A stretch of DNA of 64,000 bases from a bacterium (lineage in GTDB: Bacteria > Patescibacteriota > Patescibacteriia > Patescibacteriales > JAKAJF01): contig JAJYLD010000002.1 in the NCBI GenBank assembly GCA_021788015.1, positions 135,033-199,032 on the forward strand, read 5' to 3'. Made by a program: the position numbers and the translations under genes. Below, in pieces: positions 4,164 to 61,469 of this stretch. How positions within the stretch are numbered: the stretch's first letter is position 1; the number at the start of each line of letters is the position of its first letter. The notes beneath the pieces were generated by a model, which did not search any database, was not told where the DNA came from, and saw only the letters and a list, made by a program, of their open reading frames with translations.

Positions 4164-4277
4164 CCCGCTAGAAGCCGCGATCGCTTTTACGGGAGTAGAT
4201 AAAAACACGGATTTAAAAAATTGTAACTTACGCAGACACAATCTAAATTGTTTTGATCGCGATCTGCTTCTAACGGG
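4164..4277 (+). mobile_element. MITE-like inverted-repeat element, copy A
   Basis: Arms are CCCGCTAGAAGCCGCGATCGC (4164-4184) and GATCGCGATCTGCTTCTAACGGG (4255-4277). Flanked by ATGAAT (4158-4163) and GTGAAC (4278-4283). Homologous along its length to 59999-60103. Confidence 0.55.
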
Positions 4278-4775
4278 GTGAACACTCTTTATATTTTTGG
4301 GGCAAAATACTTTATTTATTTGATTATTCTTGCTGCTGTTATTTGTTTCTTTTTTTTGAATCGCGAAAAGAAAAAAGAAGCGATCGTTTTTAGCGTTATC
4401 GCATTGCCGATTATTTATATCGTCGCGAAAATAGGCGGCACGCTTTATTACGATCCGCGACCGTTCATCGTCGGCCATTTCACGCCCTTGATTTCACATT
4501 CTCCCGATAACGGTTTTCCTTCCGACCATGCTTTGCTCGCGAGCGCTCTGGCTATGGTCGCGCATTATTTTAATAAAAAGGCGGGAATTATATTTTGGCT
4601 TTTTGCCATCCTCGTCGGCGCTTCTCGCGTTCTCGTCGGCGTTCATCATGCGATCGATATTGTCGGTAGCATGATCATTTCCATAGTCGTAGCCGCGTTC
4701 GTTTATAAATTTATTTTTCCGCGCATTCTTAGATCCGAATTTTATAAAAATTTAAGCATCCCCTTTTTAAAATAA
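4278..4775 (+). CDS. PAP2-family phosphatase (undecaprenyl-diphosphatase-like)
   Basis: Motifs PSDHA and SRVLVGVHHAIDIVGS; multi-TM. The start codon is GTG. Confidence 0.75.
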   Translation: MNTLYIFGAKYFIYLIILAAVICFFFLNREKKKEAIVFSVIALPIIYIVAKIGGTLYYDPRPFIVGHFTPLISHSPDNGFPSDHALLASALAMVAHYFNKKAGIIFWLFAILVGASRVLVGVHHAIDIVGSMIISIVVAAFVYKFIFPRILRSEFYKNLSIPFLK

Positions 4776-10345: not shown

Positions 10346-11602
10346 TTATTTGCGTAAAGTTTTGTTCACTCCTTGGGCTATATACCGCAAACCCCTCTGG
10401 CCGATGTCTTTGCGATAGTGCATGCCCGCGAAGGATATTTTTCCCGCTGTGACATATGCCTTTCTGATGGATTCGCCCAGGGTGCCGGCAACGCCTACGG
10501 GATTGAGCACGCGGCCGCCGGCTGTGAAGTGGCGACCGTTCTCTTCTCTGGTGCCTGCATGAAACATTATTTCGTCCGGTCCCAGATTTTCCAGACCAAA
10601 GATCTCTTTGTCTTTTTCATACGGTCCGGGATAACCTCCGGACGCGAGAACGACAGTGGTGGCGTATCCCGGTTTCATTTCCACTTCCGTTCTGTCGAGC
10701 CATCCCAAGGCCGTATTATAAAGAAGATCGAACAAGGATGATTCGAGAAGCGGAAGAACAACCTGCGTTTCCGGATCGCCGAACCTGGCGTTGAACTCGA
10801 TGACATAAATGTCATCGCCCGAAATCATGAGACTGACATAGAGAACGCCGGTATAAGGCATGCCCCTCTTTTGCAGACACATGAGAGTCGGGATAAGGAT
10901 TTTTTCTTCCACTTTTTTCATAAGGCCAGGCGTCGAAAGCGGGGTCGGCGAATAGGCGCCCATGCCCCCCGTGTTTTCGCCGGTGTCGTTATCGCCGATG
11001 CGCTTATAATCCTGGGCCGTACCCAGAATTTTGTAACTAAACCCGTCGCAGTCAAAAAAAACAGAAAGCTCTTCGCCCTCGACGCATCTTTCAATCAGGA
11101 CCAGATCGCAGGCGGAGCCGAACCGGCGCTCAATGAACATGATCTTGAGCGCCTCCTCGAACTCTTCTTCGCTCCGGCAAACGATTGCTCCTTTGCCCGC
11201 CGCTAAACCGTCTGCTTTTACGACTACGGGCAAGCCCAGCCGTTTTTTTGCCACACGCGCAGCCGTTTGGTTCGTAGTCACAATGAATTCTGGTTGGGGA
11301 ATATGATTTTTTCGCATGAAAAGGCGAGCATAAAGTTTGCTCGTTTCCAGCCGGGCCGCTTTGAAAGTTGGGCCGAAGATGAGCTTACCCGCCTCATGAA
11401 ACGTGTCGACAATTCCCTTGGCAAGAAGATCTTCGGAGCCGGGAACGGTTAATAAAACGTTCTTTTCCCGGGCGAACCGGAGAATGTCTTTAATATCCAT
11501 GTTCCCGGGAAGGCGAAAAACCTCGCATCCATCCCTTTCGAGCTTCCATGCCAGGGCGACTCCTCTGCCGCCGCTGTCCACGACTAAAACCGATCTTTTC
11601 AT
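10346..11602 (-). CDS. purD: Phosphoribosylamine--glycine ligase
   Basis: ATP-grasp GARS pattern throughout. The ATG at 11602 is preceded by AAGAGGAGGCTGTG. A locally sampled 60-nt block is about 58% GC. Confidence 0.85.
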   Translation of the reverse strand: MKRSVLVVDSGGRGVALAWKLERDGCEVFRLPGNMDIKDILRFAREKNVLLTVPGSEDLLAKGIVDTFHEAGKLIFGPTFKAARLETSKLYARLFMRKNHIPQPEFIVTTNQTAARVAKKRLGLPVVVKADGLAAGKGAIVCRSEEEFEEALKIMFIERRFGSACDLVLIERCVEGEELSVFFDCDGFSYKILGTAQDYKRIGDNDTGENTGGMGAYSPTPLSTPGLMKKVEEKILIPTLMCLQKRGMPYTGVLYVSLMISGDDIYVIEFNARFGDPETQVVLPLLESSLFDLLYNTALGWLDRTEVEMKPGYATTVVLASGGYPGPYEKDKEIFGLENLGPDEIMFHAGTREENGRHFTAGGRVLNPVGVAGTLGESIRKAYVTAGKISFAGMHYRKDIGQRGLRYIAQGVNKTLRK

Positions 11603-11718
11603 CACAGCCTCCTCTTAATGGTGGTTTTTATATGATGCCACTTTTCAATAGGTTTTTTAAAAGAGCAGCGCAAGTACTTCTATATTCGGGGCTTGAAACG
11701 TTTTTGTCAAGGCAAGGT

Positions 11719-11925
11719 CGCTGCGCTAAGCCCTACTTTTTGTAACCAAAAAATAGGCCAACCCGTCCGCAATGCTTCGCATAGCGATGCGGGCAGGGAA
11801 GTTTTGGGTGCTCCAATTCGCTATCACAATGATTTAGCTTTAGATTGTTTCGCCTTGACGCTTCCGCCTCGGCGAGTCTAAGGCGAGACGGGCAACCCCG
11901 CCCCCAAACCCCACGGTGTTTTGAG
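11719..11925. ncRNA. Structured non-coding repeat, copy 1; family and strand unknown
   Basis: By hand alignment it is about 85-90% identical to 60191-60395. It has several hairpins, one with a compensatory change between copies, and no conserved ORF. Confidence 0.5.
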
Positions 11926-11995
11926 ATACTTCAAGCATTTGAATTTAGGCAATTTTATGTTTTTTAATTCATGTTATGCGTTACGTGTTATGCGC

Positions 11996-34769: not shown

Positions 34770-34850
34770 CGATAAGGGTAAAATATAAACAGAATTATAA
34801 TTCACGCGGATGCAATCAAAAAATTTTGAACGGGGTCCGCTTTTAACGGG

Positions 34851-35921
34851 ATGAATAAAAACATAATCGTATTTAATTCCAAAGAGAATTTTTTGGAGCC
34901 TCTTTTCGAGGAACTTAAAAAAAGAAATTATAATTTTATTTTTTTAGATTCAATTTTTAGAGACGCAAACACTTTTTTGGGGAAAGTGGCATTTTTAATC
35001 GTCTTGCCTTTGCTTAGAATGATTTATTTTTTTTATTTTTTGTTTTTGAATCATAAGTACAAATTTGAAGCGGCCATTCTTTTTAATTTGAACGAAAAAT
35101 TGATTTTTTCTCCTTTGGTGCGTGTTTTGAAGAAAAAAATAATTTGGGTAGAATTGCCGGAAAATGATTTCAAAATGAAAAAATTTTTTAAAAGGCTCTA
35201 TCGTATGAATGCAAAGGTAGCAAAAATTATCGTGTTTAACGAGTACGGAAAAATCAAACTGCAGAACTTGGGAGTGAAGACGGAAAATATCGAGATAGTT
35301 CAGCCGGGAATAAAATTGAATCAAAATCAATATCAGGAAAATATTTTTTCGGGATTGGTCAGGGAAGAAACAAAAATAAAAAATTTTTTTACGGTCGGGA
35401 CGGTTATCGACGCGGGTCGGGAGCATAATTTGGACACCTTGCTTCAGGCCATAAAAATTTGCGCGGAAATAATTCCCAATATTCAACTTATCGTCGTGAG
35501 CAACGTACCCGACAAGAAAAATTTGAATTGGTCTGCAAAAAAAATGGGTATCGACAATTTGGTCTGGTTCGTAGGCGGCGAAAAATACAGCCGCCGCTGG
35601 TATGACAATTTTGAAATTTTTATTGTCGGCAACAAGGTTTTAAATTTACGCGATTTGGAAATCGTTTTAAGGAGCATGCGCGCCGGACTTCCGGTTATCG
35701 GCCCTGTGAATCGCGGCCTGGAAGACATAGTTTACGAAAATAAAACCGGTAGCCTGATCGAGGCGCAAAACAGCGAAATGCTCGCCCGGCAAATAATTAA
35801 ACTTTACCAAGACAGACGTCTTCGTTTAAGACTGGGCCAGATCGCCAAAGAAAGAGTGAAGGAGTTTTTTACGATCGAAAACCAGATTGAAAAATTTGAA
35901 GAATTATTGTTAAATGGTTAA
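34851..35921 (+). CDS. Glycosyltransferase (GT4-like)
   Basis: C-terminal GT-B motifs: AGLPVIGP..G..DIV.....G.L.E. Confidence 0.6.
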   Translation: MNKNIIVFNSKENFLEPLFEELKKRNYNFIFLDSIFRDANTFLGKVAFLIVLPLLRMIYFFYFLFLNHKYKFEAAILFNLNEKLIFSPLVRVLKKKIIWVELPENDFKMKKFFKRLYRMNAKVAKIIVFNEYGKIKLQNLGVKTENIEIVQPGIKLNQNQYQENIFSGLVREETKIKNFFTVGTVIDAGREHNLDTLLQAIKICAEIIPNIQLIVVSNVPDKKNLNWSAKKMGIDNLVWFVGGEKYSRRWYDNFEIFIVGNKVLNLRDLEIVLRSMRAGLPVIGPVNRGLEDIVYENKTGSLIEAQNSEMLARQIIKLYQDRRLRLRLGQIAKERVKEFFTIENQIEKFEELLLNG

Positions 35922-52219: not shown

Positions 52220-53494
52220 ATGCGATACTTTTTTATCCTAGGCACAAACCCCACCCTATCCATAGCAGAAATTTTAGCCGTTTTTCCCGGAGAAAATTAT
52301 GAATTGATTAATAAGGATGTTTTTTTGCTGGACACGGAGGAAATCAACGCGCAAGAAATGATAAAGAAGTTGGGCGGCACGATTAAAATCGGAAAAATTG
52401 AAAAGAAAATTGAAAATAAAAAAGAACAAATCGCGGAGGCGGTTTCGGAGCGTGTAAAAGAAGTGGAAGGGAAATTTAATTTTGGAATTTCTTATTATGG
52501 CGAAGGAAAGTATGATACTAAGCCGCTCGGCATGGAAGCAAAGAACAAGTTAAAGAGCATGAACATAAATTCAAGATTTGTGACGAGTCGGGAAAAAACT
52601 TTGTCGAGTGTTGTTGTCAAACAAAATAAATTGACGAAACCCGGGGAAGGGTCCGAGTTTGTTTTGATAAAATCCCCCCTAAAAATCCCTCTTAATTCCC
52701 CTTTGGCAAAGGGGGCAATAGGTGAAGGGGGCGGGAAGGAATTTTTATTCGGCAGAACCTTGGCCGTCCAGCCGTTTAAGGAATTGTCATTTCGTGATTA
52801 CGGCCGGCCGGCACGGGATGACTTTTCCGGCATGCTTCCGCCCAAACTGGCGCAGATTATGATAAATTTGGCAACAGCAGGAACGGGGCATGCCCCGTTC
52901 CTGCTGGATCCGTTTTGCGGTTCGGGAACGATTTTAAGCGAGGCCATGCTTATGGGTTACAAAAACTTAATCGGAAGCGATCTTTCGGGAAAAGCGGTCG
53001 AGGATACGAAAAAAAATCTTGAATGGATAAAGACCAATTACCAATTACCAATTACCAATGATCGGTTATACAATGTAAGTGCGACGGAAATTTCTAAGGT
53101 TGTAAAGCCGAATTCAATCGATGCGATTGCGACCGAGCCGTTTCTCGGACCGCAGAGAGGCAAGATTGATTTCATAAAAATAAAACAAGAATTGGAAAAA
53201 TTGTATTCGGACAGTTTGCGCGAGTTTTATAAAATTTTAAAACCGAAAGGAAGAGTGGTAATGATTTTTCCATTTTTTACAGCTCCTCTTGTTAATTCTC
53301 CTCTTAAGGGAGGCATCGGCACCAAGCAATATGTAACAAATTTGGATCCGAATTTGAACGGTTTTAAAATTGTTAATCCGATTCCGGAAGATTTAAGAAA
53401 AAATAAAATTTTAAAATTGACCGAGAGAGGAACGATTATTTACGGTCGCGAAGGCCAGAAGGTTTGGAGAGAGATTGTGGTTTTGAAAAAATAA
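52220..53494 (+). CDS. THUMP-like / UPF0020-type SAM-dependent RNA methyltransferase
   Basis: LDPFCGSGTILSEA and ATEPFLG. The start MRYFFILG is preferred. Three palindromic segments lie in frame. Confidence 0.65.
   Translation: MRYFFILGTNPTLSIAEILAVFPGENYELINKDVFLLDTEEINAQEMIKKLGGTIKIGKIEKKIENKKEQIAEAVSERVKEVEGKFNFGISYYGEGKYDTKPLGMEAKNKLKSMNINSRFVTSREKTLSSVVVKQNKLTKPGEGSEFVLIKSPLKIPLNSPLAKGAIGEGGGKEFLFGRTLAVQPFKELSFRDYGRPARDDFSGMLPPKLAQIMINLATAGTGHAPFLLDPFCGSGTILSEAMLMGYKNLIGSDLSGKAVEDTKKNLEWIKTNYQLPITNDRLYNVSATEISKVVKPNSIDAIATEPFLGPQRGKIDFIKIKQELEKLYSDSLREFYKILKPKGRVVMIFPFFTAPLVNSPLKGGIGTKQYVTNLDPNLNGFKIVNPIPEDLRKNKILKLTERGTIIYGREGQKVWREIVVLKK
52672..52742. repeat. G/C-clamped palindromic element in frame in the methyltransferase
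   Basis: ATCCCCCCTAAAAATCCCTCTTAATT-CCCCTTTGGCAAAGGGG-GCAATAGGTGAAGGGGGCGGG, encoding KSPLKIPLNSPLAKGAIGEGGGKE. Confidence 0.6.
52875..52906. repeat. Perfect 32-nt palindrome inside the methyltransferase CDS
   Basis: CAGCAGGAACGGGGCATGCCCCGTTCCTGCTG, which encodes ..TAGTGHAPFLL.. immediately before the SAM motif. Confidence 0.8.
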
Positions 53495-58033: not shown

Positions 58034-59998
58034 TTAGATTTTTTTGATAATCTTTTCTTCTTTATAGAAATCCAAAACATCGCCGACTTGAATTACGGGA
58101 TCGCCCTCGTATTGCATGCCGAATTCCTGATTTGTTTCCACAATATTCACGTTTTGTTTTCCGGACTGCAGGCGGACCAATTTGCCTTGAGCCACCAATT
58201 CTTTATTGCGAAAGATCTCGATCAGACTGTCGGCTTCGATTTTTCCTTCGAGAACTTTTCCGCCGACGATCTGGCTTTTTGTTTCCGTTCTGAAAATGGC
58301 TAGCGCTTTCGCTTTACCCAAATCGACTCTTTTTATTTCCGGCACGACCAATTCTTGCATCTCCGCTTTTACGTCATTGATCAAATCGTAAATGATTCGG
58401 TAATTTTTTATAACAACATTTTTTTCGCGCGCCAATTCCTCGATTTGCGGAGACAGCTTTATGTTAAAACCTAAAATTTTCGCGTCCGTCGCTTCCGCGC
58501 GCGCAATATCGCCTTCGGTTATATTGCCTAAACCTTTGTGAATAATTTTTATCCCCACCTCCCGAGTGCCGATTTTCATAAGCGACTCTTCAATCGCTTC
58601 CACCGAGCCCAAAACATCGCCCTTTAAAATGATGTTTATTTTCTTCCCACCCTCTTCTTCTTTCGTTTCCGGAATAAATGACGGCAGCCTGTGTTCGACG
58701 CCGATCTTTTTTAGCTTGACCTTTTCACCTTCCCCGACTTCAAGCACGTCGCCGACTTGTGGCGCCAATTTCAACCCTAAAATTTTAACCGGAGTTGATG
58801 GTGCCGCTTCGGGAACGTTTTCTCCGCGATAATTTTTAAGCGCGCGCACTTTGCCGTAAATTTGGCCGTTAAATACAAGCTGATCACCGATTTTTAATGT
58901 TCCGTTCTGGACTAAAATTGTCGCGACCGGTCCTTCGCCCTTGTTAACGTGCGACTCGATAACCGTACCCGCGGCTCGAGCCTCGGGATTTGCTTTCAAA
59001 CTTTCCGCTTCGAGATCGGCGGTCAAAAGAACCATGTCCAACAACTCTTCTATGCCCTTTCCTTCCTTCGCGGAAATGGGCGCGGTGATGGTTTTCCCGC
59101 CCCAATCTTCGGGGATGATATTCAATTGCGACGAAAGCTCTTGTTTTGTTTTATCAAGATTGGCTTCCGGTTTGTCGATTTTGTTTATGGCAACAATAAA
59201 AGGAATACCCGCCGCTTTTATAATACTGAAAGCTTCGACGGTTTGCGGTTTGACGCCGTCGTCGGCGGCAACGACCAAAATGGCGATATCGGCGACTTTC
59301 GCGCCGCGGCTGCGCATAGCCGTAAAAGCTTCATGGCCGGGAGTGTCGATAAAAGTGATTCTTCGGTCTTTGCGGCGCACTTGGTAAGCGCCGATATGCT
59401 GGGTGATGCCTCCCGCCTCTCCGGCAACCACATCCGTATGACGTATGGCATCAAGCAATTTTGTTTTGCCATGGTCGACATGGCCCATAACCACGATAAC
59501 CGGCGGGCGTGCGACCAAATTCTCCTTCTTTTCTCGCTCAAGCACGGTTTTTAATTTGTCCTTTTCTTCTTCCAGCCGTTCTTCGGCTTGTTCAAGGGGT
59601 TTGACTTCGATTCCTAAATCGGAGCCTATAATGGAAGCGGTTTCAAAATCGATCCGTTCGTTTAAAGAAGCGAAAATTCCGTTTTTCATCAATTCGGCCA
59701 AAATTTTGCTTACAGTAATGCCCGTAGCTTCGGCAAACTCGCGCACGGTAATAAGATTGGGAAGTTGAATTTCCCGCTTTTCTTTTTCCTCTCTTCTCAT
59801 TTCACCCTCTTTTTTTTCTTCGCGTTTTTTCAGTTCCAGCCTGCGTATCAGAAGAGGCCATTCTTTAATTATGCGCTGGGCCGTTTTGTCGTCGACTTTA
59901 ATCGCTTTTTGACCGATATCAAAACCGAGCTGCGGCAAAATATCGTGCAGTTCTTGAGGAGTTATTCTTAAAATTCTGGCCAATTCAGTGATATTCAT
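58034..59998 (-). CDS. infB: Translation initiation factor IF-2
   Basis: GHVDHGKTKLLD, DTPGHEAF, and the domain order are typical. The ATG at 59998 (MNITELA) is preferred. Confidence 0.9.
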   Translation of the reverse strand: MNITELARILRITPQELHDILPQLGFDIGQKAIKVDDKTAQRIIKEWPLLIRRLELKKREEKKEGEMRREEKEKREIQLPNLITVREFAEATGITVSKILAELMKNGIFASLNERIDFETASIIGSDLGIEVKPLEQAEERLEEEKDKLKTVLEREKKENLVARPPVIVVMGHVDHGKTKLLDAIRHTDVVAGEAGGITQHIGAYQVRRKDRRITFIDTPGHEAFTAMRSRGAKVADIAILVVAADDGVKPQTVEAFSIIKAAGIPFIVAINKIDKPEANLDKTKQELSSQLNIIPEDWGGKTITAPISAKEGKGIEELLDMVLLTADLEAESLKANPEARAAGTVIESHVNKGEGPVATILVQNGTLKIGDQLVFNGQIYGKVRALKNYRGENVPEAAPSTPVKILGLKLAPQVGDVLEVGEGEKVKLKKIGVEHRLPSFIPETKEEEGGKKINIILKGDVLGSVEAIEESLMKIGTREVGIKIIHKGLGNITEGDIARAEATDAKILGFNIKLSPQIEELAREKNVVIKNYRIIYDLINDVKAEMQELVVPEIKRVDLGKAKALAIFRTETKSQIVGGKVLEGKIEADSLIEIFRNKELVAQGKLVRLQSGKQNVNIVETNQEFGMQYEGDPVIQVGDVLDFYKEEKIIKKI

Positions 59999-60103
59999 CC
60001 CGTTAGAAGCAGATCGCAATCAAAATGATTGATATCCGCATAATTATTTTAAATTCGTGTTTTTCATGTTTATTGCTGCTGAAGCGCCATAGTCTTTAAC
60101 AGG
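59999..60103 (-). mobile_element. MITE-like inverted-repeat element, copy B
   Basis: Minus-strand arms are CCCTGTTAAAGAC and GATTGCGATCTGCTTCTAACGGG. Flanked by perfect ATGAAT direct repeats (59993-59998 and 60104-60109). The proximal arm matches 4255-4277 at 22 of 23 positions. Confidence 0.6.
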
Positions 60104-60117
60104 GATTCATGAATCAA

Positions 60118-60142
60118 ATTTAAAACGGAACTTAAGGTTCCG
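60118..60142 (-). terminator. Minus-strand terminator-like hairpin
   Basis: Stem CGGAAC/GTTCCG with a T-run only on the minus strand (TTTTAAAATTT). No annotated minus-strand gene lies upstream of it. Confidence 0.4.
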
Positions 60143-60190
60143 AAAATTAGTTCAAGTTTACAATTTTTTTAAGAAAAAGTCAAATTTAAA

Positions 60191-60395
60191 CGCTGCGCTA
60201 GGCCTTACTTTTTGTAATCAAAAAGTAAGCCAACCCGTCCGCAATGCTTCGCATAGCGATGCGGGCAGGGAAGTTTCGGGGGCTCCAATTCGCTATCACA
60301 TTGATTTATCTTAAAGTTATTTCGCCTTGTCGCTTCCGCCTCGGCGAGCTTAAGGCGAGACGGGCAATTCCGCCTCCAAACCCCGTGGTTTGTTG
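60191..60395. ncRNA. Structured non-coding repeat, copy 2
   Basis: See 11719-11925. Lies between the divergent infB and ruvB genes, outside the predicted leaderless ruvB transcript. Confidence 0.5.
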
Positions 60396-60431
60396 AAAAC
60401 GAGTCGCGTCTATATATTTCATGTTTCCGTA

Positions 60432-60440
60432 TGCTATAAT
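60432..60440 (+). promoter_or_regulatory. Extended -10 promoter (TGCTATAAT) for leaderless ruvB
   Basis: TGCTATAAT, then 6 nt (AAAATT), then the ATG at 60447. Confidence 0.55.
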
Positions 60441-60446
60441 AAAATT

Positions 60447-61469
60447 ATGATACAAAGCGAAAATGAACGCATAATAACCGGAAATGAAGCTCAAGGCGAC
60501 AGGGCACTGGATTTAAGCTTGCGTCCGAAGAAGCTTAACGAATATGTCGGCCAGGAAAAAATAAAAGAAAATCTGGCCATTTTTCTCAAAGCGGCGCAGA
60601 AGCGGGGCGAACCGATAGAGCACGTTTTGCTTTATGGCGCGCCCGGTTTGGGAAAAACGACTTTGGCGCACGTGATCGCCAACGAACTCGGCGCGAATAT
60701 CCGCGTCACTTCGGGACCGGCGATTGAAAAAGGCGGTGATTTGGCCGCCATTCTCACGAATTTGGGCGAAGGCGATATTTTGTTTATCGATGAAATTCAT
60801 CGCCTGAACACAACAGTCGAAGAAATTCTTTATCCGGCCATGGAAGATTACGCTTTGGACATAATTATAGGCAAAGGGCCGTCGGCGAGAACCTTGCGCA
60901 TCGATTTGCCGCGCTTTACGATTATCGGCGCGACGACGAAAGCGAGTCTTTTATCCGCGCCGCTTCGCGACCGTTTCGGTATCACTTATCATTTGAATTT
61001 TTATGAGCATGACGATATCGGAAAAATTATTGACAGAAGCGCGGATATTTTAAATATAAACTTGGAAAATGAAGCCGCTTCGGAAATCGCCAACCGTTCA
61101 AGGCGCACGCCCCGAGTCGCGAACCGGCTTTTAAAACGCGTCCGCGATTATTGCGATGTCAAAGGAAACGGCGAAGTCAACCGCGAACTTTGCCACTCCG
61201 CTTTTACTTTGATGGAAATTGACGAACTCGGGCTCGATTGGGTGGATTGCAAAATTTTGGAAACAATAATCGATAAATTCAACGGCGGTCCGGTCGGTTT
61301 AAATACGATCGCGGCGGCCACCGGCGAAGACGTTTCCACGATCGAAGAAATTTACGAACCTTATTTAATGCAGCTCGGCTTTCTCGATCGCGGTCCGCGC
61401 GGTAGAACGGTAACGGACGCGGCGTACAGACATCTGGGGAGAAGAAAAGGACAAGATAGCACGGTATAA
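60447..61469 (+). CDS. ruvB: Holliday junction branch-migration helicase RuvB
   Basis: [30 protein letters not shown]-type Walker A (GAPGLGKTT), and IDEIHRL. Confidence 0.95.

Follow-up and report, generated by a model that had tools for sequence, protein, structure and literature searches.

Within the 64-kb stretch of DNA analysed here (hereafter the window), two intergenic spacers hold copies of one 208-nt sequence (Table 1). The genes next to copy 1 (purD and a hypothetical one) and those next to copy 2 (infB and ruvB) are functionally unrelated. Copy 1 is found 70 nt downstream of the stop codon (11996, minus strand) of a gene encoding a 610-aa hypothetical protein, and purD starts at 11602 on the minus strand. 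Copy 2 lies in the 427-nt spacer (60020-60446) that separates minus-strand infB from plus-strand ruvB, the ATG of which is at 60447. The first-pass annotation of this DNA had described a direct repeat of about 205 nt with 85-90% identity and a spacing of 48 kb. Alignment using MAFFT confirmed the repeat and refined it to 208 nt with 24 differences and no indels (89% identity). The copies share one orientation, at a distance of 48,472 nt, and their comparison by blastn returned E = 4e-73. The identical blocks quoted in that annotation were correct in our alignment, and the distances to the minus-strand genes held as well (116 nt to purD, about 170-190 nt to infB). A repeat search of the window reported the pair as family D1 (11719-11924 versus 60191-60396, 89%), and the alignment extends the similarity to 11926 and 60398. 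The element is the sole long repeat in the window, the remaining families being AT-rich and at most 97 nt long. Its edges are sharp, the flanks of the two copies are unrelated, and its GC content is 54% versus 42% for the window. The longest identical run between the copies spans 48 nt (11757-11804).

Independent assemblies of this genome (NCBI GCA_027328865.1, contig DAHWTJ010000002.1; ENA ERZ27233565) contain the two copies without a single base changed, which excludes an artefact of assembly. The break of L004/L323 at position 11786 is wholly accounted for by the 48-nt block common to both copies. Two copies were counted in about 73 kb of genome examined, and no third one turned up in the 8.7 kb examined beyond the left end of the window. 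A Logan contig (k = 31; L002) begins within copy 2, at window position 60345, where copies 1 and 2 already differ. This start point suggests that the sample in question may hold a third copy or a strain variant.

Table 1. Positions of the repeat, its hairpins, nearby promoter-like sequences and occurrences of the palindrome U
Feature	Position	Position in copy 2	Strand	Remark
Copy 1 of the 208-nt repeat	11719..11926		.	between the stop of the 610-aa hypothetical gene and purD
Copy 2 of the 208-nt repeat	60191..60398		.	between divergent infB (-) and ruvB (+)
H1, AT-rich hairpin CCTACTTTTTG-TAAC-CAAAAAATAGG	11732..11757	60204-60229		
H2, 37-nt variant of palindrome U	11762..11798	60234-60270		within the 48-nt identical block
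H2, exact 21-nt core CAATGCTTCGCATAGCGATGC	11770-11790			
H3, long hairpin TTTCGCCTTG ... TAAGGCGAGA with an inner stem	11848..11888	60320-60360		
H4, short GGGC/GCCC hairpin	11890..11903	60362-60375		weak support
infB promoter TTGACT-17-TAAACT	60155..60183		-	outside the repeat; conserved in relatives without the element
Perfect TTGACA hexamer	11705..11710		-	8 nt from the left end of copy 1, purD side
Occurrences of U	L198-L317 (metagenome); L124 5081-5117; L126 2690-2727			variant in the window at 11762-11798 and 60234-60270

Genomic surroundings of the two copies

No recorded protein exceeds about 80% identity to the RuvB encoded here, the named relatives of which are Candidatus Falkowbacteria and Parcubacteria. 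In the two nearest relatives, which have the same gene order (L318/L319, RuvB identity about 80%) the infB-ruvB spacer is 148 nt long and does not hold the element. Alignment of the spacers showed that the infB promoter and a leader hairpin are kept and that the homology ends exactly at the left end of the element. By this comparison of sequences, copy 2 is an insertion relative to L318/L319. It sits upstream of the infB promoter, the -35 box of which is 7 nt from the left end of the copy. Since this conserved promoter stands between the element and infB, the element is not the infB leader, and the option of a leader shared by purD and infB, put forward in the first-pass annotation, falls: the promoter that separates element and gene is kept in element-free relatives. 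On the purD side of copy 1, the TTGACA hexamer might tentatively be taken for part of a promoter, with no good -10 hexamer after it.

The infB leader has features of its own. Just downstream of the promoter, a hairpin with a U-run (CGGAACCTTAAGTTCCG TTTT, window 60126-60142, minus strand) is conserved in L318/L319 and, judged by its sequence, is an attenuator-like feature of the leader. In addition, a leader of about 45 nt, ATTTTGATCGCGATCTGCTTCTAACGGG(A/G)TGAA, reaches the start codon of three unrelated genes, encoding a PAP2-like protein, a 356-aa glycosyltransferase-like ORF and infB (4241-4282, plus; 34823-34857, plus; 59992-60035, minus); it contains no Shine-Dalgarno-like GGAGG and has no Rfam match.

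No candidate for a mobilising enzyme was found within 10 kb, and the annotated flanks contain no transposase, Y1 transposase, TnpB or IscB. The only integrase is encoded about 2 kb beyond the left end of the window and is Xer-like in appearance. There (L322, 6900-6950), tandem (GGAATTA)n repeats lie directly upstream of the gene for the tyrosine recombinase (Phage_integrase), and a ParB-like gene of 521 aa follows it.

Hairpins, reading frames and RNA families

The element is laid out as H1, H2, a variable linker, H3, H4 and a variable 3' tail. A compensatory change in the 5' hairpin had been reported before, and H1 indeed differs between the copies as described: one pair is altered on both sides (C-G to U-A) and a C.A mismatch in copy 1 is a C-G pair in copy 2. 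On the minus strand, this mismatch would form a U.G pair in copy 1. H3 contains three G.U pairs on the plus strand, and H2 and H3 together contain five. In these modelled folds the strand signals of the element conflict, the G.U pairs of H2 and H3 favouring the plus strand and H1 favouring the minus strand. Folding z-scores relative to shuffled sequences were modest on both strands (-2.2 to -3.4). When one copy was threaded on the MFE structure of the other, the 24 substitutions broke fewer pairs on the plus strand than random placement did (p ~0.01-0.05), and the same test gave mixed results on the minus strand. A comparison of two sequences can show that hairpins are preserved, be it as RNA or as DNA, and no more than that; with just two copies of the element, covariation cannot settle which of the two applies. 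Two further pairings put forward in the first-pass annotation, an ATAGCGA/TCGCTAT pseudoknot and a long-range CCCGTC/GACGGG helix, are invariant in both copies, and a complementary 7-mer is expected by chance in about 10% of cases.

The ends of the element (CGCTGCGCTAAG... and ...CGGTGTTTTGAGA) are not complementary, and inverted pairing is confined to the internal hairpins H1-H4. AAACG flanks copy 2 as a possible target-site duplication and has no counterpart at copy 1. Neither a sigma70-like promoter nor an intrinsic terminator was found within the element or in common to the flanks of both copies.

No reading frame is conserved between the copies. In each open frame nearly all substitutions are non-synonymous and the stop codons differ, which rules out a small protein gene and agrees with the earlier view of the element as non-coding. 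Translations of all six frames gave no scoring match in a protein database search aimed at spurious ORFs annotated over homologous elements. At gathering thresholds, Rfam 15 recognised four tRNAs only in the whole window. In permissive mode, run on both strands of both copies as the first-pass annotation had proposed, nothing exceeded about 16 bits where thresholds are at least 58; the best matches were noise (psRNA2 at 15.9 bits, threshold 65, and c-di-GMP-I-GGC at 14 bits, threshold 59). The small-RNA and riboswitch families of Rfam resemble the element in size (about 200 nt) and multi-hairpin architecture, with scores at the level of noise.

The 36-nt palindrome U

H2 is a variant of a 36-nt unit, CCTGCCCGCAATGCTTCGCATAGCGATGCAGGCGGG, which we call U, and departs from its consensus through four substitutions in the stem and an additional base. 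The H2 stem variants T5, G30 and A34 also occur in ordinary U copies (L282, L304). The 21-nt core of H2 was found in at least 120 metagenome contigs and in two IMG/VR contigs that share nothing else. Among the matches listed, the core always lies within the same 36-nt U, all 36 positions are 94-100% conserved, and the edges are sharp, conservation falling to background on both sides with unrelated flanks. Comparison at the nucleotide level shows that H2 belongs to the U family. None of the contigs with U carries another part of the 208-nt element according to nhmmer and blastn. Conversely, the left and right parts of the element found nothing besides H2 in 2.4 Mb of loci with the same two programs, three other conserved blocks gave chance matches only in IMG/VR, and phage and plasmid collections held no match to the element. 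The parts other than H2 are without a homolog in anything searched, and spread of the element is thus not demonstrated. In this context the 18-mer GATGCGGGCAGGGAAGTT calls for caution, as it coincides with a conserved stretch of a widespread FtsK-like gene in many phyla; its matches in the genome collection (L005-L122) are this stretch, read antisense and encoding an NFPARI motif, and not the element. H3 was considered as a distant relative of U and dismissed, the alignment score being no better than that of shuffled sequences (p ~0.3).

U is found mainly inside genes. Among the matches listed, a long open frame spans it in 71 cases, and 58 of these 71 share one orientation and frame, which reads PARNASHSDAGG. 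This single-frame bias exists despite five of the six frames of U being open. Deletion of U in silico left only 1 of 121 cases (again among the matches listed) in the stop-containing frame. Excision of U in the manner of an intron can be discarded, as the deletion reveals no class of stop-frame insertions, and for the lack of such a hidden class we consider U to be translated and not excised. Neither is U a sequencing or linker artefact, given its extreme bias in frame and orientation and the existence of filled and empty sites in two independent assemblies.

Such a pair of sites is seen in TypA/BipA. In contig L246 (around 2090-2130) U interrupts the gene between 'VEYK' and 'GVKINIIDTPGH', and the closest orthologs, which are 90-91% identical and have Woesebacteria and Microgenomates as named relatives, are exactly 12 residues shorter at this position. 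In the DNA alignment, the filled site has 36 nt more than the empty one, placed cleanly between the AAA and GGN codons; no target sequence is duplicated, and the insertion is a recent one. Other relatives carry different inserts of 8-11 residues in the same loop, for example PASLQAGSQSD (L246 compared with L324 around 10190 and with proteins P0146, P0152 and P0215), and by this alignment the TypA loop is a permissive site. The empty site also contains AATGCTTCG, 9 nt of the U core, about 25 nt upstream, which may be a coincidence. Together, these comparisons provide good support for the notion that U is mobile and inserts cleanly.

U also occupies orthologous positions in different organisms, namely the N-terminus of rpsI (L204/L311), an unnamed gene (L266/L275/L305) and the L245/L310 pair. 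At these sites the U copies are identical in 36 of 36 positions, and the 120-nt flanks are 65-79% identical, with the exception of the gapped left flank of L245/L310 (91% over 98 aligned bases). The fixed sequence points to recurrent insertion at permissive sites, to homogenisation or to a strong constraint at the nucleotide level. In L258 and L296 an inner stem of U is altered on both sides, from AUGC-UUC-GCAU to ACGC-UUC-GCGU; this variant suggests selection on the fold of U. Among the matches listed, the host contigs range from 29% to 62% GC. No description of U was found in the literature that we searched, and absence there is not proof of novelty.

The genome under study holds other in-frame palindromic inserts. 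A methyltransferase gene on the plus strand contains the in-frame inserts LKIPLNSPLAKGAIGEG and APLVNSPLKGGIGTK (around 52680-52735 and 53285-53325), each encoded by a small palindrome (CCCCTTTGGCAAAGGGG; CTCCTCTTAAGGGAG) and absent from the L318 ortholog. Judged by their sequence, they would seem to form a second family of hairpin insertions that keep the frame in this genome. The same gene contains a perfect 32-nt palindrome, CAGCAGGAACGGGGCATGCCCCGTTCCTGCTG (window 52875-52906), where the ortholog is 2 residues shorter. Because of the in-frame hairpin inserts in this gene, small palindromic insertions would appear to be active or general in this lineage.

Origin of the element and its likeness to known systems

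We wondered what kind of sequence would combine a hairpin-rich, intergenic repeat with a copy of U. The explanation that we favour, giving it about an even chance, is that of a BIME/MITE-like non-coding interspersed mosaic repeat that has captured a mobile palindrome. An ancestral form of the repeat, about 170 nt long, would first have gained a copy of U, now H2; the composite would later have reached two or more intergenic locations in this Falkowbacteria-like genome by copying. Each of the two known copies would have landed a few bases upstream of a minus-strand -35-like hexamer, where insertion would be harmless. The whole 208-nt unit may have spread as DNA, by transposition or by recombination on its hairpins, possibly helped in trans by an enzyme, and its effects on the neighbouring genes would be at most incidental, for example as a barrier or a 3'-end stabiliser. 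For the entire element mobility is an inference; for U it is well supported. We do not go beyond an even chance, because we know of two copies only, found no mobilising enzyme and see hairpins whose preservation fits an RNA equally well. The 54% GC content counts against the mosaic repeat, and so do the substitutions that spare stems, a pattern that a functional RNA would show too. Among the options of the first-pass annotation, a remnant left by a mobile element came nearest to this explanation, but it missed that the identical block is a copy of a mobile 36-nt palindrome.

The same preserved hairpins could stem from a paralogous pair of genes for a trans-acting, structured sRNA of about 200 nt, a new lineage-specific family in which H2 resembles U or was recruited from it. 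Both copies are GC-rich islands in AT-rich spacers with folding z-scores of -2.2 to -3.4, two pairs are altered on both sides alongside several G-C/G-U changes, fewer pairs are broken than at random and the five G.U pairs favour the plus strand. The 48-nt invariant core would also fit (a run of this length has a probability of ~0.07), but U accounts for that core. Moreover, the copies have no promoter or terminator in common, H1 favours the opposite strand to H2 and H3, the syntenic infB-ruvB site of the relatives is free of the element, Rfam offers no match and two sequences cannot establish covariation. We regard an sRNA pair as unlikely. Of the RNA interpretation given in the first-pass annotation, a real, non-coding, hairpin-rich repeat with spared stems and no Rfam match stands; the shared leader does not, and the small RNA gene is unproven.

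A structured, non-coding repeat could likewise be what is left of something larger, be it the end of an insertion sequence (for example of the IS200/IS605 type with its subterminal hairpins), a guide-RNA scaffold or a decayed gene fragment with an in-frame U. The absence of inverted ends and target duplications together with the subterminal hairpins is reminiscent of single-strand transposons, and an open frame of 62 codons in copy 1 (PVRNASHSDAGR) includes U in the sense frame that it usually occupies. However, such frames are not conserved between the copies and have no protein relatives when translated, the annotated flanks contain no transposase, TnpB or IscB gene, and Rfam searches did not recognise HEARO or IS605-associated families. 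A relic is in our estimation quite unlikely.

The position of both left ends 7-8 nt from a minus-strand TTGAC(A/T) hexamer could be read as the mark of a cis-acting DNA or RNA module at promoters, either an upstream platform or insulator for minus-strand promoters or a 5' leader of ruvB. For the latter, a plus-strand promoter-like sequence (TTTACA-17-TCAAAT) abuts copy 2 and would put the element in the ruvB leader, but copy 1 has no downstream gene on the plus strand. The relatives use the same infB promoter without the element, the -10 hexamer of purD is poor, the sharing of a 5-mer at that offset has a chance probability of ~0.05, and purD, infB and ruvB share no common regulatory logic. 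We hold a cis-acting module to be distinctly improbable.

A bolder scenario ties the element to U by function. The 208-nt element would be a structured RNA or a single-stranded DNA intermediate, serving for example as the master or donor of the 36-nt unit or as a helper in its supply or guidance. U would represent an undescribed class of tiny mobile elements by which one fixed peptide of 12 residues, PARNASHSDAGG, is written into essential genes of many uncultured lineages. We give this scenario only a slim chance, and the functional link between U and the element is speculative. Finally, direct repeats in the same orientation and 48 kb apart might recall the att-like flanks of an integrated island, an idea effectively refuted by the housekeeping genes in the interval (rpsF-ssb-rpsR, clpP, rbfA, infB, sodA, tRNA-Asp). 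The repeats being only 89% identical and the unbroken infB-ruvB synteny of the relatives speak against it as well.

As a mosaic repeat, the 208-nt sequence alone would be one more lineage-specific interspersed repeat in a Patescibacteria genome, and a caution that GC-rich, hairpin-rich spacers are not to be called 'RNA genes' from two copies. Its main value is that the invariant core leads to U, which sits in real genes including rpsI and typA. If the result on U holds, it offers a tractable system in which to study the movement of very small selfish elements, the reasons for their tolerance in essential proteins of reduced genomes and the forces that fix their sequence.

How does the mosaic repeat compare with known families of small elements? 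Like MITEs such as Correia and ERIC, it is small, non-autonomous, structured and found beside promoters, as these often are. Unlike them it does not have their defining terminal inverted repeats and target-site duplications, and in the absence of the former and of any consistent duplication it is not a classical MITE.

A GTAG or CGTC tag marks the REP super-families, which are present in hundreds of copies and are associated with a RAYT transposase. In contrast, neither the element nor U nor H2 carries the GTAG/CGTC tag, no RAYT gene was seen in the annotated flanks, and two copies are known here. U also lies mainly inside genes, which REPs do not, whereas both copies of the 208-nt mosaic are extragenic. 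The palindromic units themselves are alike: REPs are built from imperfect palindromes of 20-40 nt, and H2 is 37 nt long and belongs to a family of at least 120 members, with H1 and H3 being palindromes as well. The BIME, REP and REPIN elements of Proteobacteria (for an overview of REPs, see PMC3733652) resemble the element as extragenic mosaics of short, imperfect, GC-rich palindromes and linker motifs, intergenic and with neither coding capacity nor inverted ends, the hairpins of which are kept by selection or by the copying mechanism.

For U, the closest parallel is provided by the Rickettsia palindromic elements (RPEs; see PMC1779305, PMC10969869). RPEs measure about 100-150 nt and U only 36 nt; U is nearly invariant in nucleotides across hosts of 29%-62% GC and occurs in Patescibacteria-type contigs, and the 208-nt element itself is intergenic. 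Nevertheless, U was found as an in-frame insertion that is present or absent among close orthologs, as in the filled and empty sites of TypA. Like RPEs, it is a palindromic selfish element that lies in frame in protein genes, including essential ones, and is translated and tolerated in loops.
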